Source of the DNA: Candidatus Thorarchaeota archaeon
GTDB taxonomy: Archaea > Asgardarchaeota > Thorarchaeia > Thorarchaeales > Thorarchaeaceae
NCBI GenBank assembly: GCA_004524445.1
Contig: SDNP01000003.1
Span: forward strand, 1-64,000
Length of the DNA stretch: 64,000 nt
Direction: 5' to 3'
Part shown: positions 3,151 to 34,646 of the stretch, piece after piece
How the letters are laid out: each line of letters begins with the position of its first letter
How positions within the stretch are numbered: position 1 is the first letter of the stretch
Program-made: the position numbers and the translations under genes
The notes under the pieces: model-generated
Seen by the model: only the letters and a program-made list of their open reading frames with translations
Database searches by the model: none
Told to the model about the DNA's origin: nothing

Positions 3151-6100
3151 ATGAGAATGCTTGTTCTGTTCGTTGTGGGACTAATACTGCTCGCCGCTCC
3201 CGTCGGAAGCAACGAATCTGAAACTTCTCCAGTGGCATCGCTAGAGATGCACCACACTTTCAACATGGCATACACCGAACATGACCCAATCGTCATCACC
3301 AGCAATGCTGACTTCGGAAATCAGTCGTGGCCCGGAGATGGCACTCAGGGAAAGCCGTATGTCATTGGTGGACTGAATATAACCCACAACTCAACATGCA
3401 TCAGCATCAGCAACACGGATGTCTACTTTGAAATCAGTGATTGTCTGATCTCTGCTGCCGATGGTGTAGAAACCCACGGGATTGTCTTCTATAACGTAGG
3501 CAATGGCACAATCCGGAACACCATCATCAGCTCACACCGAGATGGGATTGTTCTTGACAGTTCAAAAAACTGTACTCTGTTCAACAACACAGCGCGTTCT
3601 AACACGCGCTACGGCTTCACGCTTGAACAGTCTGAGCACTGCACTCTGGCTGAGAATGAAGCTGTGGGAAACTCCGAATCAGGATTCTACTTGGATAATT
3701 CGCCAAATGCTACTCTGACCCAAAATAATGCCACTGACCATGGTGGATATGGCTTCCAAATGCATCGAATCTCCGATTCCGTCCTGACCTACAACACAGC
3801 TAGGAATAGCTCTCAACACGGAATCAGTTTGCACTGGTCCAATGATTGCACCTTGGAGCACAACATAGCAATCGACAATCCATCATATGGATTCGTTATG
3901 AGTTCGTCATCAAACCTCATAGTGAGAAACAATACTGCATATGGCTCGTACACTGGTTATTATCTCCAAAGCCTCACAGATTGCCTGTTGAGCAACAACA
4001 CAGCTGAGAATGCTGCGGGTGCTGGAATTCAGTTGCTGGGTTCCAACAACTGCACACTGGCCAACAGCACTCTAGAGGGAGGTGGTCTTCGAGTCAGGGG
4101 AGATTCACTCAACAATTGGCTGATGCATAGCATCACGGATAACACTGTTAATGGAAGACCTCTGAAGTACGTTCGCAACGCTTCAGACCACGTTATTGAT
4201 GCTAGTGATTTCGGCCAGATGATTCTAGCTAACTGCTCCAAAATCACAGTAGCAAATGGTGTATTCATGAGTGCGATGGGTATCCAGCTGGGATTCAGCC
4301 CGACCTGTACCATCATCAATAACACCGCGACCGGATCACGCCAAACGTACTACCTATACAAATCGCCCAATTCCATTCTCATCAACAACACAGCCACTGA
4401 TGTTGAGTATGCAGGCTTCTACATAGAACAGTCTACTCACTGCGTCCTGGAAAACAACACCCTTATCAACGCAGGTACGGGTTTCTGTCTGCAAAGGTCT
4501 GGAAGCTCTAATCTGACCAACAACACAGCCATCGGGGGCTACTCGGGATTCTACTTAGACAGGTCTGACGACTGCACTTTGAACAACAACACAGTCACTG
4601 ACTCAGGAGATGGGTTCTATCTGCGGGATTCGCGGAACTGCAACGTGACGTACAATGTAGCTGACAATAACAACAGAAGCGGATTCTACCTGAGGAATTC
4701 CGAGGGCTTTACACTGAGCTACAACGTCGCCAATCTCAACATGTGGAGTGGATTCTACCTTGATGGTTCAGATGATTGTATCCTGAACTATAACTCCGCG
4801 GGCAACAACGGGGAACACGGATTCTACATCCTCAATACAGCCGCCTGCACTCTAACGCACAACGTGGCGGACAACAACGCAGAACATGGATACCATCTGA
4901 AAGTATCCCTGAACTGCACGCTCAGCTTCAACACTGCCAATCTCAACACAGTTAGTGGGTACTTCTCCAACGATTCTCATTATTGTGCCATGAGCTATAA
5001 CTCCGCCAGCAACAATGTGGATCATGGATTCTACTTGCAAGAATCTACGAATTGCAGTCTAGTCTTCAACACAGCCGAATTCAACACAGGAAGTGGATTC
5101 CATGCAGACAGGTCTGAGAGTTGCATATTCGACAGAAACTCCGCCGGCTATAGCGCAGATTACGGCTTCTACCTGCTCTACGCGGATGACAGCTCCCTGA
5201 CAAACAACACCGCTAGCAACAACTCAAATCATGATGTTTACCTTGAGAACTCAGCTAATTGTGTGCTTACCCAGAATGATGTTGTTGGCATTGGTTTTCG
5301 TGTTCGAGGATGGCATGTATCTCACTGGTTGCATGATTTGACTGACAATATGGTCAATGGGAAACCGTTGGGGTATTTCAGAAGCAGTTCCGGCTTTACA
5401 ATAGATGCCAGTCAATTCGGACAGGTGATTCTCGGCAACTGTTCGAGTGTCACGGTATCAAATGGTTCATTTGTGGATGTAGATGCCATTCAACTTGGTT
5501 TTTGCCACAATTGTACTCTTATTGGAAACAGTGTCACTGGTTCGAAGATTGCGTTCACCTTGTCCAATTGTGTTAGCTGTACGCTACTTGACAACGATGC
5601 CTCATTCTCAGACTATGGGTTCTACTTTGCCGATTCTGTCAACTGTGTGCTGACTAACAACACCATCAACATGATCACATATGTAGGATTCAACTTAGTC
5701 TGGTCAACAGGCTGTATTCTAACAAGCAACACTGCAACTGACTCATATCACGGATTTGGTCTATACTCATCTGATGATTTCGTCTTGACTGATAATTTGG
5801 CTATGGGAAACGACATAGGTATCCATATCACTTCCAGTGATTACGGTCTGTTGTATCTCAACTATCTCGCCTACAATCGAGCGAACGCTGTAGACGATAG
5901 CGGCTGGAACAGCTGGGACAATGGCACTCATGGCAACTACTGGGACGATTGGGATGGCACTGGGGAATACCTAGTTGGTGGGTCTGGCGGGAGCAGAGAC
6001 CACTACCCGACATTCTTTGCAGGGTTCGCTCCGACCTTTGACCACGTTGAAGACATTGAGTACGAACTCGGTACGACTGGTCACTCTATCACTTGGAGCC

Positions 6101-6732
6101 CAAGGCACTCCTATACGGGCACTTACGAATTATACACAAATCACCTCTGGATTACAGGAGGGTCATGGAACGGTTCAGATATCATCGTTACGATCGATGG
6201 ACTCGGTCTCGGTGTTCACAACCATACACTTGTTGTATTTGATATAAGGGGGAACTCCGCCAGTAGTACAGTATTCGTCACGGTAGTGGACACAACACCA
6301 CCCACAGTTAATCATCCGGATGATATCGAGTATCAGTTCGACAGCACTGGTTATTCTATCGTCTGGCATGTATCTGATCTTAGTCCCCTCAATCACTCTA
6401 TCTACCGAAATGGAAGCCTTATTCTGTCCAGTTCGGTGTATGGGAACAACATATCAATACTTGTGGACGGTCTTGAGCCGGGTGTCTACAACTATACCAT
6501 TGTTGTAATTGACTCAAGCGGCAATAGCGCAAGCGATACTGTATTCGTGAGAGTGACTCCTGCTGACACTACGCCAACCACCACAGAAACAACATCTACT
6601 ACGACAACCACAACCACTCCTACAGAACCATCGGAGTTAGACCCGTTGATACTGGTTGCGGTAATCGGCGCAATCGGATTTGCCGCTGTTGTCGTAGTGC
6701 TCTTCGTGATGAAACAACGGATGTCTGCTTAG
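3151..6732 (+). CDS. Large cell-surface right-handed beta-helix (NosD/CASH) glycoprotein with Ig-like domains, Thr-rich linker and C-terminal TM anchor
   Basis: Signal peptide; dozens of GFYLxxSxxCxLxxNTA coils; WDNGTHGNYWDD cap; DTTPP Ig-like repeats; poly-Thr; TM LILVAVIGAIGFAAVVVVLFVM followed by KQR; start at ATG 3151 preferred over TTG 3124. Confidence 0.9.
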   Translation: MRMLVLFVVGLILLAAPVGSNESETSPVASLEMHHTFNMAYTEHDPIVITSNADFGNQSWPGDGTQGKPYVIGGLNITHNSTCISISNTDVYFEISDCLISAADGVETHGIVFYNVGNGTIRNTIISSHRDGIVLDSSKNCTLFNNTARSNTRYGFTLEQSEHCTLAENEAVGNSESGFYLDNSPNATLTQNNATDHGGYGFQMHRISDSVLTYNTARNSSQHGISLHWSNDCTLEHNIAIDNPSYGFVMSSSSNLIVRNNTAYGSYTGYYLQSLTDCLLSNNTAENAAGAGIQLLGSNNCTLANSTLEGGGLRVRGDSLNNWLMHSITDNTVNGRPLKYVRNASDHVIDASDFGQMILANCSKITVANGVFMSAMGIQLGFSPTCTIINNTATGSRQTYYLYKSPNSILINNTATDVEYAGFYIEQSTHCVLENNTLINAGTGFCLQRSGSSNLTNNTAIGGYSGFYLDRSDDCTLNNNTVTDSGDGFYLRDSRNCNVTYNVADNNNRSGFYLRNSEGFTLSYNVANLNMWSGFYLDGSDDCILNYNSAGNNGEHGFYILNTAACTLTHNVADNNAEHGYHLKVSLNCTLSFNTANLNTVSGYFSNDSHYCAMSYNSASNNVDHGFYLQESTNCSLVFNTAEFNTGSGFHADRSESCIFDRNSAGYSADYGFYLLYADDSSLTNNTASNNSNHDVYLENSANCVLTQNDVVGIGFRVRGWHVSHWLHDLTDNMVNGKPLGYFRSSSGFTIDASQFGQVILGNCSSVTVSNGSFVDVDAIQLGFCHNCTLIGNSVTGSKIAFTLSNCVSCTLLDNDASFSDYGFYFADSVNCVLTNNTINMITYVGFNLVWSTGCILTSNTATDSYHGFGLYSSDDFVLTDNLAMGNDIGIHITSSDYGLLYLNYLAYNRANAVDDSGWNSWDNGTHGNYWDDWDGTGEYLVGGSGGSRDHYPTFFAGFAPTFDHVEDIEYELGTTGHSITWSPRHSYTGTYELYTNHLWITGGSWNGSDIIVTIDGLGLGVHNHTLVVFDIRGNSASSTVFVTVVDTTPPTVNHPDDIEYQFDSTGYSIVWHVSDLSPLNHSIYRNGSLILSSSVYGNNISILVDGLEPGVYNYTIVVIDSSGNSASDTVFVRVTPADTTPTTTETTSTTTTTTTPTEPSELDPLILVAVIGAIGFAAVVVVLFVMKQRMSA

Positions 6733-7280
6733 AACGCAGGTACAGGCTCAACAAGATTTCGGAGAATGGGTCCTGGAGATTGCAGAGTCTGACCATGTAC
6801 GATCCAACCCAAACGAGGGCAATTTCGCCGCTGATTTCAGTGGAACGATTAGAGGCCCTAGCGGGTCTTAGCCAGTGGACGAAGCAAGGATTACAATTAG
6901 AATTTGGTCATATGATGAAAAGAAAACATATCGCCCAACATTTGATTCTGAAGCAATCATGAAGCATCTCGAGAAAAATGCTTTTGGTCGGGTTATGCTA
7001 AGATTGAGATTTGAACATCATCCTTCTGAAAACTCAGAAAATCAACCGCGTGAAGCACATCCACTATTTCACATTCATGTAGGAGGAAAAATAAGAGCAC
7101 AATAGAGGACACTTATGAGTGGTATCCAAACATTCCAGTTCGCAGATTGTTTTCATTTCCAAGGGATTTTTTTCTAGCAGCACGAATAATCCTATCCAAT
7201 TACTATCCGGAGAAATATGAAAATGTTCCAAAGCATCAGGATTGGTTGCGTACTGCAAATGAGGCTGAAGAAATGATGTG
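6733..7280 (+). pseudogene. Frameshifted remnant of a hypothetical protein with an HPLFHIHVGG motif
   Basis: Protein-like text continues over three frames: ...ISPLISVERLE / ITIRIWSY...MLRLRFEH...HPLFHIHVGG / EWYPNIPVRRLFSFPRDFFLAARIILSNYYPEKY. Confidence 0.5.
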
Positions 7281-7771
7281 AATGTCTTTTTAGAAGAATG
7301 TCGTGGCCAGCTCCCACAAGGTCACACTGCAAAAAGCCTTTACGACCTCTTTTTGGAATGATATAAACTAGTAATCTATTTCCTTCTAATTGATTAGCAC
7401 CCACCGGTTTCTCCCATGTGCCACATGAAATGCTCTCGAAAGCGATTTCTAATGTTGTTGTTTGCGTCTTAAAACTACAACTTTAATTGTGTAATCTGAA
7501 CATTTCCCGTCCCGGGCCATTTACTTTAATATTTATTTAATTAAAATTTCGCTTGGATGGTCATAAAGAGGACTTCCACTCCGAACTTTGCTCATCCAAT
7601 GCTTTCAGAGTTTGTGTCTAATGGTACAGTGTGATATCTGCTTGCCGAGTCAAATGCAGTATCTTTATCCAAGCCAGAGTGGCTTATATACGAGGAGTGA
7701 GTGAAGGTCACCCCCCCATAAGAAACGAAGAGCCCTTAATGTGAGAAAAAAGGGATGTGAGGGAGAAGTAG

Positions 7772-9286
7772 TTGGCAACACAGAAGAAGATAGATTATCA
7801 ACTTGGGGCTATATTGAATATTGAGTCGCATTACCCTCTTGACATGTGGGTCGTCCTTCCTTCTCATAGGGGATCATCTCTGAAGGCAGCGTTCCTATCC
7901 GAACAAGAGAGCATCTATTTGAGGTCGGGGTTTCATCGCTGTGTCATTGAGCCAAATACGCTGGCATCCATGGCAAGAGAGGCAATGAGACACCACCAGA
8001 AGGTGCCAATTGCTTTATCAAGAGTGCAACGAGAAACAGTCCTGTGGATGCAGGATGAGGATGACGCAGAGTGGCAAGTGATGGGATTGCTCCAGTATGG
8101 CCGTCCTCCGAGGGGCATGGCTGCACCTATTCGCTGGATCAGACTCAACCGGCCCCATCCAGACTTTATGGTGACTGAATCACGTCCGGAACGCGTTACA
8201 TTCCCTTCGGATTTCAATGAGCAAGTGAATGACCTGCTCACCGAGATTGCTTCCTATGAGGTAGAGTCTGAAGAGGTTGACTGCTACATCACCATTGACG
8301 ACAAGAGAGATTTGTATCAGGTCAACCACAGAAGTGGAGATGATTCATACAGCGGTATAGAGACCTCTTATACACAGGAGGTCATCGAGTATCTGAGATC
8401 CCCGTTTAGGACCGGGATATTTCCCTCAAATGAAGACGGGACAACCGTGGTGTGGGATCATCTCACCGATGTGGAATACCCCGATGTTGAGATTGGGACT
8501 AAGGATAATCCCCGAACTATCAGCATGTCCTTCTTGAAGCCATTTGTCCATAGGTCCAGCTTCTACCCGGATGTCTTATCCCTACCTGAAACCTGCAGGA
8601 GCCTGCTTGATATGAGAGAGGGGAAGGACTGCACATTGGTGATTCGAGAAGACAAAGCCCTTGCCAAACACCGCATATTCGATAGATTCCGAGTCGAGTT
8701 CAAAGGACTCGAAGAATACTCTTCTCTCAAGCGATTGGAGCAAGTGACTATGCACATATTCGATGTAGCTCTTCTTGCCGAGTGCAAGCAGCTTGTCGAT
8801 ACTCGGGCAGGAGAGTATCATCGGGTTGAGATAGAATTGGGGGAAATTGACTTTTCTCAACTTCCACATCTCTCAGAGTATGAGCGGTTGGATTCACTTA
8901 TTGAAGAAACCATCCTTATGGCTGAGCTTGGCGATGACTATGGGTATGAAAACGAGCCCGTTTCTGATGAAGATGCATGGGGCACAGATGAAGACTTGGT
9001 GTTTCTAAGCTCTCATATTAAGGTGGGAAGGCGGGGTCTCGTCACAATCATTGCTAGATTGGGATTAGAATCGGATAAGGACAATTATGATGACATTGTC
9101 ATAGTTGAGAATCTGAGTCATCATGTACACGAGGGTGATGTTGTATCCAATTCGATCTGGGAAGAGATAGACCATCGATTAGGCCATCTTGACATCTCTA
9201 GCGTGGAAATAGATCGCATTTATGAAGAAGTTGAGCAAATAATAGAGGACAGAGACCTCTCGTTATCAGACGAGGAGTTCTATTAG
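7772..9286 (+). CDS. Acidic hypothetical protein, possibly the C-terminal fragment of a larger gene
   Basis: 504 aa ORF with natural composition; TTG start; no recognised motif; flanked by decayed DNA. Confidence 0.65.
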   Translation: MATQKKIDYQLGAILNIESHYPLDMWVVLPSHRGSSLKAAFLSEQESIYLRSGFHRCVIEPNTLASMAREAMRHHQKVPIALSRVQRETVLWMQDEDDAEWQVMGLLQYGRPPRGMAAPIRWIRLNRPHPDFMVTESRPERVTFPSDFNEQVNDLLTEIASYEVESEEVDCYITIDDKRDLYQVNHRSGDDSYSGIETSYTQEVIEYLRSPFRTGIFPSNEDGTTVVWDHLTDVEYPDVEIGTKDNPRTISMSFLKPFVHRSSFYPDVLSLPETCRSLLDMREGKDCTLVIREDKALAKHRIFDRFRVEFKGLEEYSSLKRLEQVTMHIFDVALLAECKQLVDTRAGEYHRVEIELGEIDFSQLPHLSEYERLDSLIEETILMAELGDDYGYENEPVSDEDAWGTDEDLVFLSSHIKVGRRGLVTIIARLGLESDKDNYDDIVIVENLSHHVHEGDVVSNSIWEEIDHRLGHLDISSVEIDRIYEEVEQIIEDRDLSLSDEEFY

Positions 9287-9405
9287 ACTAGACGTATGTC
9301 TATCGAGTGTTAGTCAATCACCCGGAAAGAGTTACTCTTGTGGACTAAAAACACCATTTTAGAAAACATCTCGTTGCATCTACAAACTATCAAAGGCAAC
9401 AAAAC

Positions 9406-9625
9406 TTGACCAAACAACTAATTATCGGATTACACAATGCAGGTCCCATAATTCCAAGAACGGTCATCCTGAAGGATGGGAGAGAGGTTGTCATCAGATT
9501 CCGCAGTGATGATGATGCTGAGAATCTCTACGGGATGTATTCCTCCATGTCACCTGAGGCGCTGGAGTGGGTAATGGCACCGTACACACGAGAACTCTTC
9601 GACAGATTCATTTCTAATCTTGCTA
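9406..9625 (+). pseudogene. GNAT N-acetyltransferase, N-terminal fragment
   Basis: VILKDGREVVIR...DDAENLYGMYSSMSPE is a typical GNAT start; the acetyl-CoA-binding half is missing. Confidence 0.6.
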
Positions 9626-9837
9626 TCTCCTGTTATGTTCGATACTGCAATCACCTCTCGCGCCCACATGTTTTGCCGATTCTTATTCAGTTTTCCCCCA
9701 GGAGTAGAGCTCGGATAGGAATGGCCTTGTAAGATGCCTTTCAAATCGCCATGTCTACCACTTTCTCCGTTGGCAGTTTAAAATCCAGCCTGTATGAGAT
9801 GGAGTATGATAGATTTATAGCGAAACTCCTGTGCGAT

Positions 9838-10302
9838 TTAGGATGCCAATTCCCTGGCGAATAGCTCTCCGAAAGTCCGCCCATGTTCAAGCTCATTTGT
9901 CCCTAGTGGGCCTTTGGAGTCAATTACCACAGAAGTCAGCCCGGGAGTGAAAATCTTGGCGCCGGGTGCCTTGTCCCGGACCATGTCCTCAATCTGCTCC
10001 ACGGCATTTCCTTCATGCCTGTCAGATTGGTATGTTTCGAAAGCACCAACTAGTTTTCCATCTAGCCCTTTCTTTGCCAGTTTCTTCACGGATCCCTTGA
10101 TGCCTCGAGTTGCTCTGAAGAAATGTATTGGACACCCAAACAATACACCATCATAGGTTGACATGTCCACAAGGTCCAGTTCTCTGATATTGAGAACGGT
10201 AGACTCAACATTTTCATTCTCATCTATTCCAGCAGCAATCTCCCTAGCAAGTTTCTCCGTGTTACCATAAGTTGTGTCATACACTACCAGTGCGCGTTTC
10301 AT
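9838..10302 (-). CDS. Flavodoxin-family protein
   Basis: VVYDTTYGNTEKLA FMN-phosphate loop; YDGVLFGCP. Confidence 0.9.
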   Translation of the reverse strand: MKRALVVYDTTYGNTEKLAREIAAGIDENENVESTVLNIRELDLVDMSTYDGVLFGCPIHFFRATRGIKGSVKKLAKKGLDGKLVGAFETYQSDRHEGNAVEQIEDMVRDKAPGAKIFTPGLTSVVIDSKGPLGTNELEHGRTFGELFARELAS

Positions 10303-10376
10303 CTTGAATCTCTGCTCCTAAATAATCCTACATGACGACAGACTTCTCTTAGCTGGTATGTCCTAAAGTGTTTTAT

Positions 10377-11597
10377 CTATTTGGAGGCAGGTTGCCGATT
10401 CCTTTGCATTGACCTACGATGTCCAAATAGCACCACAAGAAGAGACCCTAATTCGACGATTCCAGCCAGAATGAATGCCATAACGAACCCACTGTACACT
10501 AAAACGGTCCCGAGAAGCAATGGTCCCACAATCATTCCAAGATTACCCATGAAATTGAAGAACCCCATTCCAGTTGCCGTATCCTTGCTGTTCGTAACAT
10601 CTCCAACCCAAGCAAGAGTGGGTGGAGCGGTCAATCCAGAAAAGGCGCCCAGTAGCATGAGAGCAAGAACGAGTAAAACTAATCCTTGTTCAGCAGCTAT
10701 TCCTATGACTGTAAGAATCAACGCATAGGCTAGGCTACCAACAACTACTGGTTTAAACCGTCCTATTCTATCTGACAGCCTACCCACAGGGTATTGTAAC
10801 AGAATGAAAGGCATGGCAAATAATCCCAAGACCATTCCTCTCAGAGATTCTGAAACGCCCAGCACCTGAACAAGCATCAAAGGCAAAGCGGTCAATATGA
10901 AACCCATATGTAGTCTGTCGACAAAATTGATTGTAGCAGGGATTGTTATCTCCGGATTGCGTTTAGCTAAAGAGATACTCCTACGTAATGATGGCTGAGA
11001 TGTCAAATGGACTGGTTCTTTGATACCAATAATAGAAAGAATCCCAACGAGAAGGCTAAGAAGCGAGGCTGCATAGTACGGCTGAAAAACGCTCTGTTCA
11101 GCCAATATGCCGCCTAGAACCGGACCGAGGCCCATTGCTGTCGCCAGAAACATTCCGAAAATCCCCATGTTTTTTCCTCGATTTGATGAGAGAGAATTAT
11201 CAAGGGCTAGCGTCATCAGAGTCTGCCAAACCAATACTGTAAATGCGCCCTGAACGAACCGCATCATCAAGAGCACCTGGTAGTCCAGAATTACAGTCAT
11301 GAACCAATAGAACAAGGATGCTCCCAACCCACCCACCGTTATGAAGAGTTTCCTCTTTGCGATTCTATCGGAGACAATACCTGTAGTGATTCCAAAGATC
11401 AGATAGGACAAATAGAGCACTGCATCGAACAGAGAATACTGAAACTTAGAAATCTGAGGGAATCGTGCCAAGATGAATTCGGGTTCATTTGTATAAAGAA
11501 GCGCGGCGGCAGAAACGGTGAGAAGGACCAAAACACCCAAGAGGATGATTTGACGGACACTTCCATCTTCTGCTTGAGATTCATTCATTGGTATCAC
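10377..11597 (-). CDS. MFS transporter
   Basis: About 12 TM helices; motif A GIVSDRIAKR and GRLSDRIGR; MMRFVQG. Confidence 0.92.
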   Translation of the reverse strand: MIPMNESQAEDGSVRQIILLGVLVLLTVSAAALLYTNEPEFILARFPQISKFQYSLFDAVLYLSYLIFGITTGIVSDRIAKRKLFITVGGLGASLFYWFMTVILDYQVLLMMRFVQGAFTVLVWQTLMTLALDNSLSSNRGKNMGIFGMFLATAMGLGPVLGGILAEQSVFQPYYAASLLSLLVGILSIIGIKEPVHLTSQPSLRRSISLAKRNPEITIPATINFVDRLHMGFILTALPLMLVQVLGVSESLRGMVLGLFAMPFILLQYPVGRLSDRIGRFKPVVVGSLAYALILTVIGIAAEQGLVLLVLALMLLGAFSGLTAPPTLAWVGDVTNSKDTATGMGFFNFMGNLGMIVGPLLLGTVLVYSGFVMAFILAGIVELGSLLVVLFGHRRSMQRNRQPASK

Positions 11598-11747
11598 ATG
11601 GAACCGACCTGTGTACTAGAGGCATAATAAGTCTGTGAAGGCACCGGATTTCGATTATCATCAGACGCCAAGTATTCTTGCCCTTACTATTTCATATCTA
11701 TTAGAGAATATACTTTAGGGGTGATGACCTGTAAGTAGAATAACATC

Positions 11748-12281
11748 ATGCTTAGGATTGAAATTGATATGACCGAGTCGCCCAAATTCAAGGAAAAGAT
11801 GGACATTACAGTTGAAGAACACCACAAAGCCGTTGCGTCAAAGCTTGTTTCCCTTGTAAGATGGCTGGAGAACGAGCTAGGCGAAGAGAGAGCTCACCAA
11901 GTTTTCTCAGACTGGGCCGAGAAAGAGTCAGTTGAAAGCGTTCGAGAGCTTATCGAGAAACTGGAGGAACCGATTGAGGACTTTGAAGATGTGAAGATAT
12001 TACTTAGAGAATGGATAAGAGACATCAATGAGAATAATCTAGAAGATGTTTCCATCACAGAGGAGACTGCAACGTCCTCGACGTGCATGGTTGACGCATG
12101 TATCCATGCCAAAGTGTTTCGGGATCTTGATGCTGAAGATATAGGCTATCTCCTGTACTGCAAGCACGATTTCGCAGCAGCACCAGCAATCCATCCCAAA
12201 GTAGCATTGAAGCGCACAAAGACGCGGATGGAAGGTGACGAAGTCTGCGATTTCGTCTATTACTGGACTGAATCACCATAG
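11748..12281 (+). CDS. L-2-amino-thiazoline-4-carboxylic acid hydrolase-like (V4R-related) protein
   Basis: C...IGYLLYCKHDF...LKRTKTRMEGDEVCDF pattern. Confidence 0.8.
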   Translation: MLRIEIDMTESPKFKEKMDITVEEHHKAVASKLVSLVRWLENELGEERAHQVFSDWAEKESVESVRELIEKLEEPIEDFEDVKILLREWIRDINENNLEDVSITEETATSSTCMVDACIHAKVFRDLDAEDIGYLLYCKHDFAAAPAIHPKVALKRTKTRMEGDEVCDFVYYWTESP

Positions 12282-12363
12282 TAGTGAGAAGACACACGTT
12301 CCAAAACCGTTATACCTTACATATAGTGATTCTTCTACTCAGACCTCAATTGGAGTAAGCAAC

Positions 12364-13545
12364 ATGTTCAAAGAGAAAGGAATGGCAGAAGAAGAGGTTC
12401 TGGGAGACTTAGAAAAGCTCCTAGCTAGAGATGCAACCTATTCGTCGGGACACCCGATTGCATCAATGTCAACAATTCCAAACCAGTTAGGTGTGGAAGT
12501 CTTTTCGAAGACATTGGAGAAGAATGCAGGCAGACTTCACACATTCAAGGGCTCTGCAAGAGTAGAACAGCAAGTAGTCCATATGCTTGGTGATTTGTTG
12601 CATCTAGATTCTCCAGTGGGCACAACTACATCAGGTGGCACTGAGTCAAATATGCTCGCGATGTTGGCTGCAAGAGAAAACGCTCCAAAAGAGGTCAAAA
12701 AACCAGAAGTCATTGCACCGAAGTCGGTTCATTCTTCCGTAGATAAGGCGGCGTGGTTATTGGGAGTTCACCTCGTTAAGACAGAGGTGGATGACGTGTT
12801 CAAGGCCATTCCGTTCGAGATTGAAGAACAAATTAGCGAGAATACAATTGCAATATTCTGTACGGCAGGGACGACGTATTTAGGTCAAGTTGATCCCATT
12901 GCTGAGATAGGATCTATTGCAAGAGAGAGGGATATTCCGCTACATGTTGATGCTGCATTTGGAGGCTTTGTCATTCCATTTCTGAAGGACGCTGGGCATC
13001 GCTCCTATGACTTTGATTTCAAGGTAGAAGGGGTCACTTCTGTAAGCACAGATCCACACAAAATGGGCATGGCTCCAATACCTGCGGGTAGTTTGCTATT
13101 TCGAGATACGAAGATGCTGGATATGATAACAAGGAAGGTCCCCTATCTTAGAGGAGCAAGTGCAACACAGGCTTCCCTCTTAGGTACACGCCCAGCTTCA
13201 TCGATTCTTGCAACATGGGCGATCATGAGACATCTCGGAAGGCAAGGCTATAGAGAATTAGTCAAAGAATGCATGCAACGAACTGAGCATGCACATGACC
13301 GAATTAAACAAAATACCCTGATAGAAGCAGCGATAGAACCTGTGATGAATATCTTAGGAATAACAAGTAAGGAACGCGACCTCGACGAAACCGTGGAGGA
13401 AATGGAAAAAAGAGGGTGGAGAATGGCCACCTCGCCAATCCCGCCCACCATGAGGCTGGTTGTGATGCCCCATGTTACAGAGGGCGCGATAAATGCATTC
13501 TTCAATGATTTAGACTTAGTAACTACGACAATACCTGCAAACTAG
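12364..13545 (+). CDS. mfnA: PLP-dependent L-tyrosine/L-aspartate decarboxylase
   Basis: TSGGTESN, HVDAAFGG, STDPHKMG (PLP lysine), GTRP; start set at MFKEKG. Confidence 0.9.
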   Translation: MFKEKGMAEEEVLGDLEKLLARDATYSSGHPIASMSTIPNQLGVEVFSKTLEKNAGRLHTFKGSARVEQQVVHMLGDLLHLDSPVGTTTSGGTESNMLAMLAARENAPKEVKKPEVIAPKSVHSSVDKAAWLLGVHLVKTEVDDVFKAIPFEIEEQISENTIAIFCTAGTTYLGQVDPIAEIGSIARERDIPLHVDAAFGGFVIPFLKDAGHRSYDFDFKVEGVTSVSTDPHKMGMAPIPAGSLLFRDTKMLDMITRKVPYLRGASATQASLLGTRPASSILATWAIMRHLGRQGYRELVKECMQRTEHAHDRIKQNTLIEAAIEPVMNILGITSKERDLDETVEEMEKRGWRMATSPIPPTMRLVVMPHVTEGAINAFFNDLDLVTTTIPAN

Positions 13546-21935: not shown

Positions 21936-23275
21936 CCAGACTTGTATTCGTTCTCGGAAAGAATTGGATTCTATCCATCGCCGAAGTGGTGACGCTCCTG
22001 CAGGATAAAGGCTACGATCCTAAGGTCATTGATAACACCAGGAACGGCATGATAGTTGAGATTGAGGGAGATGTTACAGATGAACAGATTGTACATCTCC
22101 AGAGTCAATTGGGAGGATGCTATAAAACAGGTCGACTCATCCGAACCTACACCATCGACTTGATACGTGATGCATTTCCTGACAGAAGCAAGGGGGATAG
22201 ATCCGCTCGGAAATTGCTAGCCGAAGTGGAATGGACTCATAAGATTTGGCCTAGACCAAATAAGAAGAGTATCAGTTTTGGCGTTTCGACTTATCCACCA
22301 TTTGAAAGAGGTTTTAGGGTACATCTCCAACGTTTGACCCGCTCACTTGACCAGTACATCAAGAAAGACCTGCTAGACCGGGGAGCCAAGAGTGTTGACT
22401 ATATTATCTATGAAAAGCCCGACAGAAGAGATAGCGCTAGCAAGAACACAGCATTGTGGCCAAAGGCAATAGCAAAGCATAATCTGCTAGTTCCACCAAA
22501 CGCCGAAATCATCGCCATTATTGCTGAGAGAGATTTGTATCTGGCCAAATCCATTGCAGTATATGACTCAATGTTGCAGCGATATCGAGATGAAGCAAGA
22601 CCCTACATATCAAATGAAATTAGTACAAGTCCAAAGCTATGTCGAACCTTACTGACTCTATCAGGCGCACGTGAAGGCGATACGGTACTAGACCCCTTCT
22701 GTGGAAGTGGAACGCTCCTGATGGAAGCAGCTCTTCTGGGTATGAAGTGCATTGGCCTTGATGTTGATGGTGATGCAGTAGAAGGAACTAGGTCCAATCT
22801 CAAATGGTTAGCACGAGACCTCGATATGCCTCTCGATTTTCGTGTTTATCATGGAAACGCCAGGAATCTCACCAAGACCGTAAGTACTACAGTAGACGCG
22901 GCTGCTTTCGAACCAGATCTCGGACCTATATACACTAAGCGTCCGGAAAAAGCTAAGGCGATTGAAACGATACGAGACTTGACTGAGTTGTATTGCGATG
23001 CGATTCAAGAGATTTCCAAAATATTGAATCCGAGAGGCAGAATTGCCATGACATTGCCAAATATACAGACAAGAAGTGGTGAAGTGATGGTACGGGTTGA
23101 TGAATTACTTGAAGGCACAAATCTAGTGGTGTACAAAATGCTGCCTAGTAGTGTGTTTCATGACTCTATGGTAAGTAATAAGAAACTCAAAATCATCCCG
23201 GACAGAACTGCTCTAATTGAACGGAAAAGAGGGCAAATAGTTCAACGGTCAGTCATCATGCTTGGCAGACCCTAG
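21932..23275 (+). CDS. Trm11-like tRNA (m2G10) methyltransferase
   Basis: RDEARPY...STSPKLCRTL, VLDPFCGSGT, EPDLGP. Confidence 0.75.
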   Translation: MTRLVFVLGKNWILSIAEVVTLLQDKGYDPKVIDNTRNGMIVEIEGDVTDEQIVHLQSQLGGCYKTGRLIRTYTIDLIRDAFPDRSKGDRSARKLLAEVEWTHKIWPRPNKKSISFGVSTYPPFERGFRVHLQRLTRSLDQYIKKDLLDRGAKSVDYIIYEKPDRRDSASKNTALWPKAIAKHNLLVPPNAEIIAIIAERDLYLAKSIAVYDSMLQRYRDEARPYISNEISTSPKLCRTLLTLSGAREGDTVLDPFCGSGTLLMEAALLGMKCIGLDVDGDAVEGTRSNLKWLARDLDMPLDFRVYHGNARNLTKTVSTTVDAAAFEPDLGPIYTKRPEKAKAIETIRDLTELYCDAIQEISKILNPRGRIAMTLPNIQTRSGEVMVRVDELLEGTNLVVYKMLPSSVFHDSMVSNKKLKIIPDRTALIERKRGQIVQRSVIMLGRP

Positions 23276-24105
23276 AATAGATACCGGACCACATCATCAA
23301 GAATCGCATATGTTTGCAGGCGGGATATGTCGCGCTTCACATATGGCATCGCTTCTTCAAAAATCATTTCTTTGAAAGCATCAGGAGGGCTGATTTCCTT
23401 CGTTGCAACTGCAACCACCTTCAGCAATTCCTCGAGAGCGTTTCTCAGTTGGCGATAGCTGGTATTGTATACATCAATACAGAGGACATCAATTCCATTC
23501 TCATCAATTGGAACCTTAGCCAAGCAGGAAAACTTCTCAACGACGTATTTTGCTCTCTTGAGGATAGTTTCTGTGAGCCGAGTTCTTGTCTTTTTGTTGA
23601 TATCAACGCTTAGAATGGATTTTATCAAGTGGCTATAGACCTCCAAGCAGTCCATGGCTTTTCCAGCAATGAGAGCCTCGTCAGTGAATTCGTATTGATT
23701 TATGAGCTCATCAACAAAGTTACCAAAGCGTTTGAAAGTCTTTGAAGTCCCAGTCCAGGTTTTCAGTAGACTATCCAAGTCCTGGTCCTTGGGTATCTCG
23801 TTTTTCATAAACTCCTTGAGAGCATATTCTACCAAGAAACGCATGTGACTCAAACGAGCACCCTTGGAAACGACCATGACGAAGAGGAGGTCGTCAGTTG
23901 CCTCCCATACATAACGATTATTCTCCGTGTCAATCGTCTTCAAGTTTTCGTGCGAGGCCTTGTCAATGAAGGTATGAGTAGCAGATAGAAAAGGAGCAAT
24001 CAAGTCCATATCAATTTCAATTCCACTATATGCCTTTGAGATGAGATTTCGTCCGGTGTTTCGTTCAATCAACCAGACTCCTTGGATGTCTCTGCTCTCG
24101 GACAT
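23272..24105 (-). CDS. Longin-domain protein with helical C-terminal domain
   Basis: GVWLIERNTGRNLISKAY...DLIAPFLSA...YVWEATDDLLFVMV...ALKEF...FGNFVDEL fits the longin fold. Confidence 0.7.
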   Translation of the reverse strand: MSESRDIQGVWLIERNTGRNLISKAYSGIEIDMDLIAPFLSATHTFIDKASHENLKTIDTENNRYVWEATDDLLFVMVVSKGARLSHMRFLVEYALKEFMKNEIPKDQDLDSLLKTWTGTSKTFKRFGNFVDELINQYEFTDEALIAGKAMDCLEVYSHLIKSILSVDINKKTRTRLTETILKRAKYVVEKFSCLAKVPIDENGIDVLCIDVYNTSYRQLRNALEELLKVVAVATKEISPPDAFKEMIFEEAMPYVKRDISRLQTYAILDDVVRYLF

Positions 24106-24219
24106 ATTGTATCAAGCCGTGCATATCCGCGGAAAATGGTTACATAAGATTATGTAGCATTTCCATGACAAAAAAGCCTGAGAGTAATATCTGGGAACTA
24201 TGCATGTAATACGGGCTTC

Positions 24220-25182
24220 TTATGTGGTTGAGATTCCGAGCTTCTCAACCATCTCTTTGTATCTATTGCGAACAGTCACTTCCGTCACCCTCGCAGTACG
24301 AGCAATCTCCAACTGTGTACGACGTGAACCAACGAGAATGCTTGCAACGTAAATCGCAGCGGCAGCCATGCCCTTTGGATCCTTGCCGATGGTGAGACGC
24401 TCCTCCTTAGCCTGCTGAAGAATGTCAATGGCCTTTTTCTTGGCAGATCCTGGAATTCCTAACTCGGTACCAAATCGATGAATAAAATCAATGGGGTTTG
24501 CTAGGGGCACCTTCAATTCCAAATATCGGATCACCAACCGAACACACAGGCTCAGTTCCTTTCGAGTGATATGAATCATATCTGTGATTTCTTCCAAGGG
24601 ACGAGGTACCTGGTGAACTCGACAGGCAAGGTACAAAGATGCAGCAATCATACCAAGAATAGTACGACCTCTAGTCAGACGCTTTCGGAGTGCCTTCCTA
24701 TAAATAACAGCAGAGGTTTCTCGTATCGAGTAGGGAATACTCAACTGAGAGCTTATCCTATGGAGCTCAGTCATGGCAACTGCAAGATTACGCTTGTTAG
24801 AGGAATGTACCTTGGACCGAATCTGCCATTTCCGGAGTCGGTGAATCTGCGCTCTTCTTGTTGATGAAAGTCTTCTACCAGAAGCATCCACATTCTGCCT
24901 GCTTATGACCGTAGAGAGGCCTTGGTCAAATTTACTCCAATCAACCGGACCTCCAACGCGTTGTCGAGAGTTCCTCTCATCAGCAGTGAAAGCACGCCAT
25001 TCAGGACCGGTATCAATTTGGTGGTCGGAGATCACAAGTCCGCATTCTGCGCAGGTGATTTCACCACGAGATTCATCAACATACATCTTGGTAGAGCTGC
25101 AAGATGGACAAATATAATCAGACGAGTTGGGGTGCTCCCTTTCATTCCGAGTCTTTGCTTCTTTGCTGGCCAGTCCAATCAT
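24220..25182 (-). CDS. tfb: Transcription initiation factor IIB
   Basis: CPSC...CAECG zinc ribbon, IDTGPEWRAF, two cyclin repeats, VTEVTVRNRYKE. Confidence 0.97.
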   Translation of the reverse strand: MIGLASKEAKTRNEREHPNSSDYICPSCSSTKMYVDESRGEITCAECGLVISDHQIDTGPEWRAFTADERNSRQRVGGPVDWSKFDQGLSTVISRQNVDASGRRLSSTRRAQIHRLRKWQIRSKVHSSNKRNLAVAMTELHRISSQLSIPYSIRETSAVIYRKALRKRLTRGRTILGMIAASLYLACRVHQVPRPLEEITDMIHITRKELSLCVRLVIRYLELKVPLANPIDFIHRFGTELGIPGSAKKKAIDILQQAKEERLTIGKDPKGMAAAAIYVASILVGSRRTQLEIARTARVTEVTVRNRYKEMVEKLGISTT

Positions 25183-30219: not shown

Positions 30220-30326
30220 TATAACTAATTCGCACTGTGCAGTTGGTAGTGCTAGTATTAGCAGAATAATACACACGTTATTCTTAGAGTATTTTCCTAG
30301 TAACGTGATAAGTCGGAGGCCCGTAT

Positions 30327-31886
30327 TTGACAAAAGGTTCACCATCGAATTATTGTAGCCTTTGTGGCGATAATCGTTCAACGCATATGTGCGAGGACTG
30401 TGGTACTTTGCTATGCACAAATTGCCTTGATACGAAGTCAAGTGAGTACACAATGTGCGCAGAATGCCACCATAACCTTGGAAGGATTCCAACGGGCGAA
30501 GAACCGAAAACATGTTCTGAGTGTGACTCAGAGAGCTTTGTAACGGCAAAACGCATTGAGGAAATATGTCCAAAATGCTACTCGACTCGAATTGTGGGAA
30601 TTGAAGAAAAACGAAGAGCGCTAGCTCACGAACTGCGAAGTGCAGTAATGAACATTCATTACGGTCACACTAAACTTAGAGAGTTCAATGCTAGGCTCGC
30701 TTCCGCGAAGAGAATTCTTGTTTCATTGAGAATGGCGAATTTTCTTGGCTTCAAGTGGTTTGAAGATAGGATTGAACAGATTCAAGACGAGTTCATAGCT
30801 ATCAAGAACCGTGTTACAAATCAAGCAGAGATAGTAGCAAAGAAGATGCTCGCAGAAACAAAAGGTCTCATAGATTACCAAGCATGGGAGACTGGTCAAT
30901 TTCCGTTTGTTGAAGGTGTAACCAACCGTGTAAGCCATATCGGACGACAATACAAGAGCAATATTGATGACGCACTCCATGGATTGGAATTGGATTTAGG
31001 TGAACTGACTGAGCATCTAGAAGGTCTTGATTACTATAGAAAGCATTTCGCAGGATTTTACGAGTATTCAGATCTATCAGTGAACGAACTTCCTGTGTGT
31101 GCGATTCCCGAAATCAAACTAAGCGGGAGCGACTTCCTAAAACACGACAAGGCTACAGGAATACTGTATATCACAAATAAGCGATTAATATTCATTGCAG
31201 AAACTGGCATGGTACGCAAAAAGACAGAGGTCGTATTTGACTTCCCGTTAGTCTACCTAAAATCTCTGGAAGAAGATGGGAGGTTCAGGAAGCGTCTGGT
31301 ATTGAAGCTAAAACAGGGCGATGTACGAGTTGATTGTGACGAACAAACAGAACAGGTTCTCTCAGACTACATACAGATTGCAAAGAAGTTTGATCGGTAC
31401 GTGCAAGATGATATGCACCGAGTACGAAAGATTGAGGCGACCAGTGTTAATGTCAGCGATGTGAGACTGAAAATCGAGGAACTAGTTTACTCGATTTTAT
31501 CCACTAATCAGCCAAGCAAAATCCCCGAAACAAAGAGAGGGTACTATGTTCCATACCAGGACCAGGAAAGGCAAAGATGGAACCCACAAAGTAGATACCA
31601 GACAAAGCAGAATTATGAAGACGAATTGGCTGAGGAGCTCAGGAGGACACTCGGCCATCGAAATGGCAGACGAAGAAGTCAGGGATACGACCTTGGTCTT
31701 GAACAATTGAGGAGAAATGAGCGAGAACTCCAATCCGCTCTCTCTGAAACTGTCGACCTACTTCGAAGTGGAAGAATAGTACCTGAAGACTTCATAAGAA
31801 GATACAGAGGCCTCATGCGGGACTCATATAGTATCAGAAAAGAACTAGAGCACTACAATGGTAATACTGAATACCACAAATGGTGA
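30327..31886 (+). CDS. ESCRT-I-like protein: multi-Zn-finger, coiled coil, GRAM/GLUE(PH)-like domain and C-terminal steadiness box (Vps23/37-like)
   Basis: Six CxxC pairs; GILYITNKRLIF...FPLVYLKSLEE; ALSETVDLLRSGRIVPEDFIRRYRGLMRDSYSIR; adjacent to ESCRT genes. Confidence 0.7.
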   Translation: MTKGSPSNYCSLCGDNRSTHMCEDCGTLLCTNCLDTKSSEYTMCAECHHNLGRIPTGEEPKTCSECDSESFVTAKRIEEICPKCYSTRIVGIEEKRRALAHELRSAVMNIHYGHTKLREFNARLASAKRILVSLRMANFLGFKWFEDRIEQIQDEFIAIKNRVTNQAEIVAKKMLAETKGLIDYQAWETGQFPFVEGVTNRVSHIGRQYKSNIDDALHGLELDLGELTEHLEGLDYYRKHFAGFYEYSDLSVNELPVCAIPEIKLSGSDFLKHDKATGILYITNKRLIFIAETGMVRKKTEVVFDFPLVYLKSLEEDGRFRKRLVLKLKQGDVRVDCDEQTEQVLSDYIQIAKKFDRYVQDDMHRVRKIEATSVNVSDVRLKIEELVYSILSTNQPSKIPETKRGYYVPYQDQERQRWNPQSRYQTKQNYEDELAEELRRTLGHRNGRRRSQGYDLGLEQLRRNERELQSALSETVDLLRSGRIVPEDFIRRYRGLMRDSYSIRKELEHYNGNTEYHKW

Positions 31887-31887
31887 C

Positions 31888-32511
31888 TTATACGCCGAGC
31901 TCTTTCTCCAATGATTTAATCGCTTCTTCTAATTCCTCTGCCTCAGTCATCGGGCGCCCCGATTTGGCAGAGGCTTCAACTTGGGCTGCGGCCTCGATTT
32001 CTCTCATGGCCTCATTTAATTCTTCTGAGGTCACCTCAGCTTCGGTTGTGGAATCGAAAGCTTCGCCCGCAATGCCGCTCTCAATTTCAAACTCCTCCAG
32101 ACGCATGGCGATCTCGTCTGCATTTTCGATTACTTTGGATGTATCCGTGGCATCTCCGAGAAGACCCAATATATCTGCTACGTCATCAAGAGCTTTAGAT
32201 GCCTTTGCAGTGGTTTGTGCTCGAGTTACATGAGCTAATATCTTCAAGATTTGAAGACGCGACTTGTCAATTGAAAGAGCGAAACGTCTGAACCTCACCA
32301 TTTCTTGTGCATAGGTTCGAAATGCTTCCGTGTTTCCGTTCTTTCGTGCCTCGATTGCTCGCGCCTTCGTATCTCGTTCTTCCTTTTCCAACTTGTTTCT
32401 CTGTCGTTCAAGCTGCTTTGATAGAACGCGAAGCTGACTCGTAACTTCGTTGATATCAGGCTTCTTTCGTCCCCATGAGAAGGCTTTCTTGAAGATACCC
32501 AATCTGTTCAT
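31888..32511 (-). CDS. ESCRT-III subunit (Snf7 family, Vps2/24/46-like)
   Basis: Basic N-terminal helical hairpin QLRVLSKQLERQRNKLEKEE...ARKNGNTEAFRTYAQEMVRFR; acidic C-terminus with MIM1-like EELEEAIKSLEK. Confidence 0.9.
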   Translation of the reverse strand: MNRLGIFKKAFSWGRKKPDINEVTSQLRVLSKQLERQRNKLEKEERDTKARAIEARKNGNTEAFRTYAQEMVRFRRFALSIDKSRLQILKILAHVTRAQTTAKASKALDDVADILGLLGDATDTSKVIENADEIAMRLEEFEIESGIAGEAFDSTTEAEVTSEELNEAMREIEAAAQVEASAKSGRPMTEAEELEEAIKSLEKELGV

Positions 32512-32702: not shown

Positions 32703-33926
32703 ATGACCGACACGAATGGAACTAGGCTCGATAAAGGCTTAAGAGAATTGCTCGACAGAGCTATCGATCTAGATCAGAGGGGGCTGAAGAAGGAAGCATG
32801 CCAAAAATACCTGAAGGCCAGCAAAATTTTGATTAAACTCTCAAATGCAACAAGTCTCCCCTCCGTCCGTAAGCATTACCTCAAACGAGCGCAGGAGTGT
32901 GTAGATAGAGTTCGTTATCTATCCGGCATTAGGAAGAAGACTCGAGGACCAGAATTCGGCCTCACAAGGCCAGTCACACCAATCCATGATGATAGCCAAA
33001 AAGGTGAAATGCCAGTTACCAGTCCAACTGAAGAGCAAGACGAAGATGAGATACGACTCAATGAGATGGTTTCTGATACAATTCTTTCCGAGCGCCCTGA
33101 TGTCAAGATGTCAGAAGTTGCAGGACTAAGCGATGCAAAGCAAGCAATCCATGATGCCATTATATCACCCATGAAACACCCGGAGTTCTTCAAAGGTAAG
33201 GCTAGGCAGCCTTGGAAGGGAATTCTGCTCTATGGACCTGCTGGATGTGGGAAGACACTAATCGCCAAAGCGGTTGCAAACGAAGTAAAAGCCACCTTTT
33301 TCAATGTATCAGCAGCGAATATAGTGAGTAAATGGCTAGGCGAGTCTGAGCGATTGGTTAAACACCTCTTCGATTCTGCGCGTAACAACCAACCATCAGT
33401 CATATTCATAGATGAGCTTGATTCTATAGGGGTTTCAAGACGGGGAGAAGATGTTGGAGGGGAACGAAGACTCAAGACACAATTGCTAACGGAGCTTCAA
33501 GGCCTAACAAGCAAGAGTGGCGAAAGAGTCACACTCATTGGGGCAACAAATCTTCCGTGGGACATCGATTTCGCCTTACGGTCCAGGTTTGAAAAGAGAA
33601 TTAATGTTCCACTCCCCGATAAAGCCGCAAGGGTCAGAATTTTCAAAATACATATTGATGACATTGAAGTCGCGCCGGATGTAGACTTCAATGAGCTTGC
33701 TGACTTGACAGAGGGATACAGCGGGAGGGATATCAGCGTGGTATGCAGAGAAGCCGCAATGGAACCTATCAGAGAATTGCAGAGCGATATTTCTCCATCG
33801 GAAAAAGCTTCGTTCAGATTGAGGCCTGTATCAAGATTGGATTTCCTTAATGCGATTGATAATATTCGCCCCGCAACATCCCCTGAAGACATTCGCAGAT
33901 ACAAAGAGTGGGCGGAGGGTTCATAG
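32703..33926 (+). CDS. vps4: Vps4 AAA+ ATPase with N-terminal MIT domain
   Basis: MIT (AIDLDQRG..EAC..Y), PWKGILLYGPAGCGKT, SKWLGESE, FIDELD, ATNLPW. Confidence 0.95.
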   Translation: MTDTNGTRLDKGLRELLDRAIDLDQRGLKKEACQKYLKASKILIKLSNATSLPSVRKHYLKRAQECVDRVRYLSGIRKKTRGPEFGLTRPVTPIHDDSQKGEMPVTSPTEEQDEDEIRLNEMVSDTILSERPDVKMSEVAGLSDAKQAIHDAIISPMKHPEFFKGKARQPWKGILLYGPAGCGKTLIAKAVANEVKATFFNVSAANIVSKWLGESERLVKHLFDSARNNQPSVIFIDELDSIGVSRRGEDVGGERRLKTQLLTELQGLTSKSGERVTLIGATNLPWDIDFALRSRFEKRINVPLPDKAARVRIFKIHIDDIEVAPDVDFNELADLTEGYSGRDISVVCREAAMEPIRELQSDISPSEKASFRLRPVSRLDFLNAIDNIRPATSPEDIRRYKEWAEGS

Positions 33927-33929
33927 TTC

Positions 33930-34646
33930 GTGGGAGTTAGAGAGCGCAAGAAGGAGAAAAAGGAAAGCAAAGAAGAAGCTCGTTCAGAAGAAAAATCAGC
34001 TGAATCAAAAACCGATGAAATAACAGAGCAAGAAGTCCAACCGCTTGAAGGACCCAGTACTACACAGAAAGAAGACAAAACGACGACTGAACCTGAATCA
34101 CGCACTCAGGTCGTTGAAGAAACACCTGCCGAACGAGAGATGCTGTTGCCAACATGGGGCAGTGTAAATGAGTATGAATTGATGTACCATATACCTACTG
34201 GAGAAGACGACCGAGATCTCTGGGCAGATGAATGGGGAGATTTCCTCTTGGAGTGGGCACAAAAGAACACGGCACATAAAATATCACTAGTAACTTTCAT
34301 CACTGAACAACCATTCTCCGATATATTTGGAAAAGTGAAGGCATTCCGTCTGATAGCAGAAAAACTGGTTGACAAAGATGTGGCTGAATGGGTTGGAAGG
34401 AACAAGGGGCAGCTTCGGATTTACTGGAGACCCATAGAAGATTGGGCAGATATCATCTATGCATGGTCTATTGAAACAGGTAAGACTAGGTTGGATGTGA
34501 AGACACTAGTAATCCAAGAAAGCAGCCAGGATTTTGCAAGTCTGCCTGAAGATGAACTCAAAACCATCCTGGGCATTCTGGTGGAACAAGAACTCGCTGA
34601 ATGGGTAGACAAGAAACGAGCGGCAATAAGAATTCGTATTTCTTAG
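33930..34646 (+). CDS. vps25: ESCRT-II Vps25-like protein with acidic N-terminal extension
   Basis: AEWVGRNKGQLRIYWRPIEDWADIIYAW matches the Vps25 EW...I.WR.PEEW..IY.W signature. Confidence 0.88.
   Translation: MGVRERKKEKKESKEEARSEEKSAESKTDEITEQEVQPLEGPSTTQKEDKTTTEPESRTQVVEETPAEREMLLPTWGSVNEYELMYHIPTGEDDRDLWADEWGDFLLEWAQKNTAHKISLVTFITEQPFSDIFGKVKAFRLIAEKLVDKDVAEWVGRNKGQLRIYWRPIEDWADIIYAWSIETGKTRLDVKTLVIQESSQDFASLPEDELKTILGILVEQELAEWVDKKRAAIRIRIS

Follow-up and report, generated by a model that had tools for sequence, protein, structure and literature searches.

Here we describe a 519-amino-acid (aa) protein encoded within positions 1 to 64,000 of contig SDNP01000003.1 of a Candidatus Thorarchaeota archaeon (assembly GCA_004524445.1), this whole stretch of 64,000 nucleotides being referred to as the window. 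Judging by profile comparisons, the C-terminal helical hairpin of the protein is most probably a true Vps23-type steadiness box, homologous to that of Vps23/TSG101. The gene opens a cluster of five, whose other members encode ESCRT-III, Vps4, Vps25 and a Vps28N-Vps22 fusion. We consider it likely that this thorarchaeal protein is an ESCRT-I-like subunit, with a proposed pairing to the Vps28-type hairpin of the fusion and with targeting by its PH domain and zinc modules. A preliminary description of the window had proposed zinc modules, a helical region, a GRAM/GLUE-like PH domain and a Vps23-type box, and all of these parts were recovered by structure prediction, Pfam and profile searches.

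The AlphaFold2 model of the protein, built from a 25-row alignment (mean predicted local distance difference test score, pLDDT, 79), places in order zinc beta-hairpin modules (residues 10–91), three helices, a PH fold, two short helices, a disordered segment and the C-terminal hairpin. The latter consists of two helices (residues 454–480 and 486–516), both with pLDDT >90. We assembled a profile, A4, from six C-terminal hairpins of the family, the one of the window protein included, and searched it against the PDB. The yeast Vps23 core was retrieved at E 1.2e-9 to 4.5e-9 (2p22_A, 2f66_A and 2caz_A) and human TSG101 (6vme_B) at E 1e-4, the next match following at E 0.24. No Vps28 or Vps37 chain was found among the matches of A4 in the PDB, even though such chains are part of those same ESCRT-I core entries. 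Using hhalign, A4 could also be aligned across the hairpin to 18 Asgard UEV-Vps23 proteins (probability 96%, E 4e-9). With full-length sequences, the comparison to yeast Vps23 structures was marginal (E 0.14–0.8 for the family profile) and the hhalign comparison to UEV-Vps23 was weak (E 0.099), a clear Vps23 signal being obtained only once the hairpin was profiled by itself and not within the full-length protein.

A Pfam scan of the single 519-aa sequence yielded sub-threshold matches alone, and Vps23_core (PF09454; gathering cut-off 26.8 bits) was not among them at E<=1; the scan of the whole genome with this model likewise missed the protein. When 301 Asgard genomes were scanned with PF09454, matches were observed in open reading frames of about 500 aa belonging to other families. 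These frames are full-length homologues of the window protein, sharing 25% identity over residues 5–512 (E 2e-49 and 4.5e-41), and their C-terminal hairpins score 27.5, 26.8 and 26.9 bits. The Thorarchaeota orthologue at 53% identity scores 17.1 bits, which is below the cut-off, and sub-threshold Vps23_core matches were obtained in 4 of the 25 Thorarchaeota members of the family scanned with Pfam, the sample to which all member counts given here refer. A generic SHOCT-type motif, which the preliminary description had named as the outcome that would speak against its proposal, could be ruled out: A4 finds Vps23/TSG101 specifically, and no SHOCT match was seen at E<=1 in any Pfam scan of the window protein or of the 25 members.

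Within its own genome, A4 retrieved the gene at E 6.8e-30 and a second open reading frame at E 1.3e-3, and the hairpin described here appears to be the only clear Vps23-type box of this genome. The second frame was rejected as a steadiness-box candidate, having no Pfam support for such a box. It lies on another contig (G000:C62, about 24050-24652, reverse strand; L047:1111-1713) and encodes a helical protein of 200 aa with two hairpin repeats of the type 'EEGSISEKE..YR', for which GvpG was the sole Pfam match (E 0.11). In a related Thorarchaeota genome, a 175-aa helical protein (L037:7980-8507; G005:C78) reaches 25.3 bits with Vps23_core, just below the cut-off; this could represent either a steadiness-box-like protein standing on its own or coiled-coil noise.

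The genomic context of the gene was analyzed in parallel. The preliminary description had pointed to a neighbouring fusion of Vps28N with Vps22, and this was borne out: residues 4–131 of the 267-aa product match the N-terminal part of bona fide Asgard Vps28 at E 1e-7, residues 70–242 match Vps22 at E 9e-33, and the order of the genes is kept in distant relatives. This gene order is shared by a Thorarchaeota genus at 53% protein identity and, at 25% identity, by two genomes from a different Asgard family, a third genome showing part of it. In addition, a Vps28N-type match (in a frame of 246–274 aa) was located on the other strand at a distance of about 3.3 kb in all 8 of the 8 Thorarchaeota genomes in which both lie on one contig. 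Lack of conservation beside ESCRT genes had been the other possible objection to the proposal, and the gene is thus found in its ESCRT neighbourhood down to 25% identity.

The architecture and the context correspond to a family already described by Makarova et al. 2024 (mBio, PMC10936438) as Znr_CC_PH_SB (asCOG cog.011556), which combines zinc ribbons, a coiled coil, a PH domain and a steadiness box. Judged by these two features, the window protein appears to belong to this family. According to these authors, Znr_CC_PH_SB is absent from eukaryotes, occurs in a number of Asgard lineages and is probably ancestral; it was called 'a likely ESCRT-I component' whose PH domain 'is expected to be membrane associated' (PMC10936438). 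The parts, their order, the ESCRT neighbourhood, the restriction to Asgard archaea and the proposed role are the same as in the window protein, and nothing essential differs, the Thorarchaeota form being compact (519 aa) and encoded in a genome without ubiquitin, UEV-Vps23 or a clear stand-alone Vps28. The family and its functional reading were hence already published in 2024, and our result confirms known work. The family profile also matches frames of 660–730 aa with a C-terminal Vps23_core in another Asgard family, which fits the 650-aa Lokiarchaeum member GC14_75 given in the supplement of that study (PMC10936438). The same study described a Vps22 fused to a steadiness box and linked the hairpins of the steadiness box and CdvA, and yeast two-hybrid data suggest contact between a steadiness-box protein and Vps28 in Loki- and Thorarchaeota (Hatano 2022, PMC9192718). 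No experimental paper on the Znr_CC_PH_SB family itself was found in the literature searched.

The coding sequence is uninterrupted over its 519 codons, and homologues at 47–58% identity number more than 120, their named sources being nearly all metagenome-assembled genomes of Thorarchaeota. One database call of the gene comprises 477 aa and begins at M43, thereby leaving out the first CxxC pair. The alignment shows that this pair is also kept in the full-length homologues, and the 477-aa call is accordingly too short. This conservation and a GGAGG sequence 7 nucleotides upstream make the TTG start credible. The positions of the gene, its parts and its neighbours are collected in the table.

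Table. Positions in the window of the gene, of the segments of its product and of the adjoining ESCRT genes.
Feature	Position	Strand	Basis
Shine-Dalgarno-like GGAGG, 7 nucleotides upstream of the TTG start	30315..30319	+	direct sequence reading
Whole gene, Znr_CC_PH_SB architecture, 519 aa	30327..31886	+	open reading frame and translation
Zinc modules 1-2 (predicted), residues 7-52, four CxxC pairs, weakly B-box-like	30345..30482	+	invariant Cys; Pfam
Third zinc ribbon (predicted), residues 60-91, C63/66 and C81/84	30504..30599	+	invariant Cys; AlphaFold2
Helical region, residues 92-241, three long helices with short loops	30600..31049	+	AlphaFold2
PH domain of GRAM/GLUE/bacterial-PH kind, residues 243-360	31053..31406	+	Foldseek, VIA-align, Pfam
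Variable disordered Y/Q/R/P-rich linker, residues 395-453	31509..31685	+	pLDDT 32-58 (AlphaFold2)
Probable Vps23-type steadiness box, helical hairpin, residues 454-516	31686..31874	+	AlphaFold2; profile search; hhalign
ESCRT-III (Snf7 family), convergent, 1 nucleotide from the stop codon of the gene	31888..32511	-	Pfam Snf7 E 4.6e-8; position kept in relatives
Vps4 (MIT + AAA + Vps4_C)	32703..33926	+	Pfam; synteny
Vps25 (ESCRT-II)	33930..34646	+	Pfam ESCRT-II E 4.9e-13; synteny
Vps28 N-terminal hairpin fused to Vps22 winged helices, proposed partner, 267 aa	34661..35464	-	Pfam EAP30 E 8.8e-14 (residues 92-224)

The N-terminal part contains 12 cysteines arranged in six CxxC pairs (C10/13, 22/25, 30/33, 44/47, 63/66 and 81/84), all of which are invariant across the 30 aligned sequences, including homologues at 25–32% identity. 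We predict from this pattern that the N-terminus carries three Cys4 zinc sites of the zinc-ribbon type. In the third ribbon, the model shows a beta-hairpin at residues 71–80 and a further strand at 89–91. Weak but recurrent Pfam matches were obtained for zf-B_box (PF00643) in 15 of 25 members (best E 8e-6) and for the double zinc ribbon DZR in 19 of 25. For the 519-aa protein itself, zf-B_box was sub-threshold (E 0.002; 18.7 bits against a cut-off of 24.1), and a precomputed PF00643 annotation was present on 3 of the 120 homologues listed. Weak profile matches of the protein to the RNF4 RING (E 0.005) and to Prok-RING_4 (E 0.029) were also observed. When residues 1–98 were folded alone and compared with the PDB using Foldseek, the best match was an MCM-type zinc ribbon at E 0.067, and B-box1 of PML appeared at E 0.66. 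A resemblance to NZF was seen in none of the profile or structure searches. The first four CxxC pairs may thus form a B-box cross-brace or sequential ribbons, with RING as a further candidate.

The helical region that follows is predicted to consist of helices at residues 92–136, 143–178 and 189–241 (pLDDT 72–96). The preliminary description had read it as a helical/coiled-coil stalk; the helices are indeed present in the model, but they are parted from the box by the PH domain and a linker of about 60 aa. RhoGEFs of the DH-PH kind top the Foldseek list, yet superposition over the helices gave a root mean square deviation (rmsd) of 8–19 Å, speaking against a real DH domain, and we rejected these matches as a probable coincidence of helices plus a PH domain. 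The alignment of the disordered linker is variable, save for a conserved short helix at about residues 430–442 with a FRxxLERxIG-like motif (about 31614–31652 of the window). A conserved tryptophan is the final residue in most Thorarchaeota members (31881–31883 in the window). Either this helix or the terminal tryptophan could be a short linear binding motif.

Residues 256–358 are predicted to form a seven-strand sheet capped by a C-terminal helix, that is, a PH fold. Using VIA-align, the best structural match was the PH-GRAM domain of MTMR2 (Z 12.7, rmsd 2.7 Å over 107 residues, 18% identity), with Lam6 (Z 11.8) and BBS5 also among the best PH matches. The GLUE domain of EAP45 followed at Z 11.1 and 10.2 with 15–18% identity, scores similar to the ones obtained with many other PH domains, and the GLUE structure 2dx5_A gave a TM-score of 0.67 in Foldseek. 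The segment further contains a GxLxxTNxRLxF motif, which we take to be typical of GRAM. At the level of sequence, the matches of the 519-aa protein to bPH_3 (E 0.008) and GRAM (E 0.09) are sub-threshold, as are those of the members to bPH_3 (17/25), GRAM (6/25) and Vps36_ESCRT-II (2/25, best E 0.035). A sequence profile of the PH domain alone found nothing significant in the PDB, the matches being bacterial PH domains at E 0.2. 'GRAM/GLUE-like' is accordingly a fair description of the predicted fold, by which membership in either family is not proven.

Compared with known ESCRT subunits, the protein shares with Vps23/TSG101 and the Asgard UEV-Vps23 proteins a putatively homologous C-terminal hairpin. 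Unlike Vps23/TSG101, it contains neither a UEV nor a proline-rich region (no Pfam match to UEV/UQ_con in the 519-aa protein, no UBC fold in the model) and carries zinc modules and a PH domain, and its helical region does not run on into the box. With Vps36/EAP45 it has in common a PH fold that superposes on GLUE and the presence of zinc fingers in the same protein, the GLUE domain of yeast Vps36 carrying NZF fingers. Unlike Vps36/EAP45, it contains no winged-helix ESCRT-II core (no Pfam match to EAP30 in the 519-aa protein, no winged helix in the model), no fingers are inserted into its PH domain, its zinc modules would be N-terminal Cys4 ribbons and not NZF, and its Pfam similarity to Vps36_ESCRT-II is sub-threshold. 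Its best structural matches, its motif and the recurrent bPH_3 hits are those of the PH-GRAM domains of myotubularins and Lam/GRAMD proteins and of bPH_3, from which it differs in its unrelated domain context and in sequence matches that stay under the Pfam thresholds throughout.

We further determined the distribution of the ubiquitin system. The preliminary description had noted that no ubiquitin, E2 or UEV gene is visible in the window, and this absence extends to the genome as a whole, in which no Pfam match to any of the three was found (2.79 Mb, 90% complete). None of the 76 genomes sampled from the family to which this genome belongs gave a ubiquitin match, nor did the one genome of the sister family, and ubiquitin is present in almost all other Asgard families sampled. 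These scans agree with the reported lack of ubiquitin in Thorarchaeota (Hatano 2022, PMC9192718), in which the ubiquitin arm has either been lost or was never there.

Homologues were recognised by the family profile in 202 of 301 Asgard genomes, distributed over 18 of 30 families, and most families with a homologue also carry ubiquitin (in family f9, the homologue in 64 of 68 genomes and ubiquitin in 67 of 68; in f12, 17 of 19 for both). In the sole cluster of another family that was examined gene by gene, an f12 locus (L033; G118:C69:40000-58000), positions 4235–13001 hold ubiquitin, UEV-Vps23, Vps28, Vps22, Vps25, Vps4 and ESCRT-III together with the homologue. This cluster also contains a 174-aa open reading frame, and an AspRS gene lies close by, as in the window. 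Genuine Asgard UEV-Vps23 proteins are separate genes encoding about 255 aa. Because homologues occur in 202 of 301 genomes, mostly together with ubiquitin and once beside UEV-Vps23 and Vps28, we dropped the view of a Thorarchaeota-specific UEV replacement, and with it the wording 'in place of a UEV' and 'domain-swapped' of the preliminary description. The protein appears instead to be an old, separate steadiness-box subunit.

The ubiquitin independence proposed for the adaptor is a feature of the lineage, which the protein itself may or may not share. The genome contains seven ThiS/MoaD-type small modifier genes and two ThiF-type E1-like genes, and a non-ubiquitin modifier is therefore still conceivable. 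One ThiS/MoaD-type beta-grasp gene adjoins a divergent ThiF-type E1-like gene (G000:C6:73556-74690), six further ThiS-family matches lying elsewhere; this pair could be a SAMP-like modifier system or serve plain sulfur transfer.

Eukaryotic Vps23 pairs through its steadiness box with the N-terminal hairpin of Vps28 in the ESCRT-I headpiece. By analogy, the steadiness box of the window protein would pair with the Vps28-type hairpin on Vps22, which would give the protein a direct connection to ESCRT-II, no Vps28 C-terminal domain being needed. The PH domain, aided by the zinc modules, would set the complex on a membrane, a cargo or a partner protein; Vps25 would then recruit ESCRT-III, to be recycled by Vps4. 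Since the lineage contains no ubiquitin, E2 or UEV, this recruitment cannot depend on canonical ubiquitin.

No stand-alone Vps28 was detected by Pfam (VPS28) in the genome. Some Thorarchaeota genomes encode a protein of about 410 aa with a borderline VPS28 match (24.2 bits against a cut-off of 24.5, over nearly the full-length profile) and weak BAR-like matches. The orthologue in the genome studied here (G000:C1:76014-77237, reverse strand; L053:1471-2727) is an all-helical protein of 418 aa, 59% identical to that protein and itself without a VPS28 match; it could serve the steadiness box as a second partner. Elsewhere in the window (23272–24105, reverse strand), a 277-aa protein shows a weak longin match (Fuz_longin_1, E 7e-4), longin-like proteins being of interest in Asgard trafficking.

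Several observations weigh against a membrane- or cargo-targeting ESCRT-I-like subunit. The assignment of the box rests, for the window protein, on family profiles, since the single sequence has no Vps23_core match, and the predicted helical region is not a Vps23-style stalk running straight into the box. In sequence, the PH domain matches neither GLUE nor any lipid-binding PH domain significantly, and a PH fold is in itself no proof of lipid binding. Since the family occurs together with ubiquitin in most other Asgard families, and next to UEV-Vps23 and Vps28 in the f12 cluster, its ancestral role may furthermore have been accessory and not one of cargo recognition. In an explanation of the latter kind, which we hold to be unlikely, the protein would occupy the third hairpin position, in the place of Vps37, beside UEV-Vps23 and Vps28 without sensing cargo or membrane, and the Thorarchaeota form would be a leftover that pairs with Vps28N-Vps22. 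The three hairpin-bearing proteins encoded in the f12 cluster resemble the eukaryotic heterotrimer in number, and weak matches to Mod_r (Vps37) in 4 of 25 members and to Mvb12 in 2 of 25 point in the same direction. The small genomes of family f3 (1.3–1.4 Mb) have ubiquitin and in 0 of 4 cases a homologue; if f3 represents Odinarchaeia, which is a guess of ours, this would fit the Vps23 dimer with one Vps28 that has been reported for Odin (PMC9192718). In contrast, the steadiness-box profile finds Vps23/TSG101 chains only and not the Vps37 chains of the same PDB entries, all Mod_r matches are sub-threshold, and PH and zinc domains typically serve recognition and not structural filling.

An adaptor that depends on a protein modifier, with the zinc modules or the PH domain binding ubiquitin in other Asgard archaea and a ThiS/MoaD-type modifier in Thorarchaeota, seems rather improbable to us. 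The EAP45 GLUE domain is able to bind ubiquitin as well, and the GLUE fold that the PH domain resembles has been solved in complex with it (2dx5, 2hth). The family occurs in nearly all ubiquitin-bearing Asgard families, a ubiquitin gene lies 7 kb from the homologue in the f12 cluster, and one of the seven ThiS-family genes of the own genome is adjacent to one of its two ThiF genes. However, conservation of the 12 cysteines and of the PH core is just as strong in the family without ubiquitin, which argues for a ligand common to both kinds of lineage; the zinc modules are NZF-like in no search, and controls showed that ThiS and ThiF are present in almost all prokaryotes, for sulfur transfer. That the protein is not an ESCRT component at all, its hairpin being a generic SHOCT/CdvA-like element or coiled coil located there by chance, or its N-terminus a RING/B-box E3 ligase, is very improbable. 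The missing Vps23_core match of the window protein alone, the weak RING matches and the published link between steadiness-box and CdvA hairpins (PMC10936438) could be brought forward for it. They are opposed by the specificity of the hairpin profile for Vps23/TSG101 (E down to 1e-9), by the absence of SHOCT from all Pfam scans run and by a gene order kept at 25% protein identity; an E3 ligase would moreover have no ubiquitin or E2 to work with, and the folded zinc module is unlike RING structures. Synteny, PDB profile search and hhalign thus largely refute this non-ESCRT explanation.

Taken together, these results favour an ESCRT-I-like subunit, within a family and a line of thought that are already in print (PMC10936438, PMC9192718). 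Our analysis adds a specific profile-level link between the hairpin and Vps23/TSG101 structures and groups the PH domain with the GRAM/GLUE kind; it also shows how the family is spread over 301 Asgard genomes, in most families together with ubiquitin and, in the f12 cluster, with UEV-Vps23 and Vps28. The Asgard ESCRT-I/II system bears on the origin of eukaryotic membrane trafficking. Because the protein appears to be the only Vps23-type subunit in a lineage without ubiquitin, Thorarchaeota offer a natural test case for ubiquitin-free ESCRT recruitment. More speculatively, and with considerable doubt on our part, Znr_CC_PH_SB might be the missing third subunit of the archaeal ESCRT-I headpiece (a forerunner of Vps37), an early home of the PH-plus-zinc-finger module later found on Vps36 and, in Thorarchaeota, a minimal ubiquitin-free bridge between ESCRT-I and ESCRT-II together with Vps28N-Vps22. 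If this were true, membrane targeting of ESCRT would be older than its coupling to ubiquitin.

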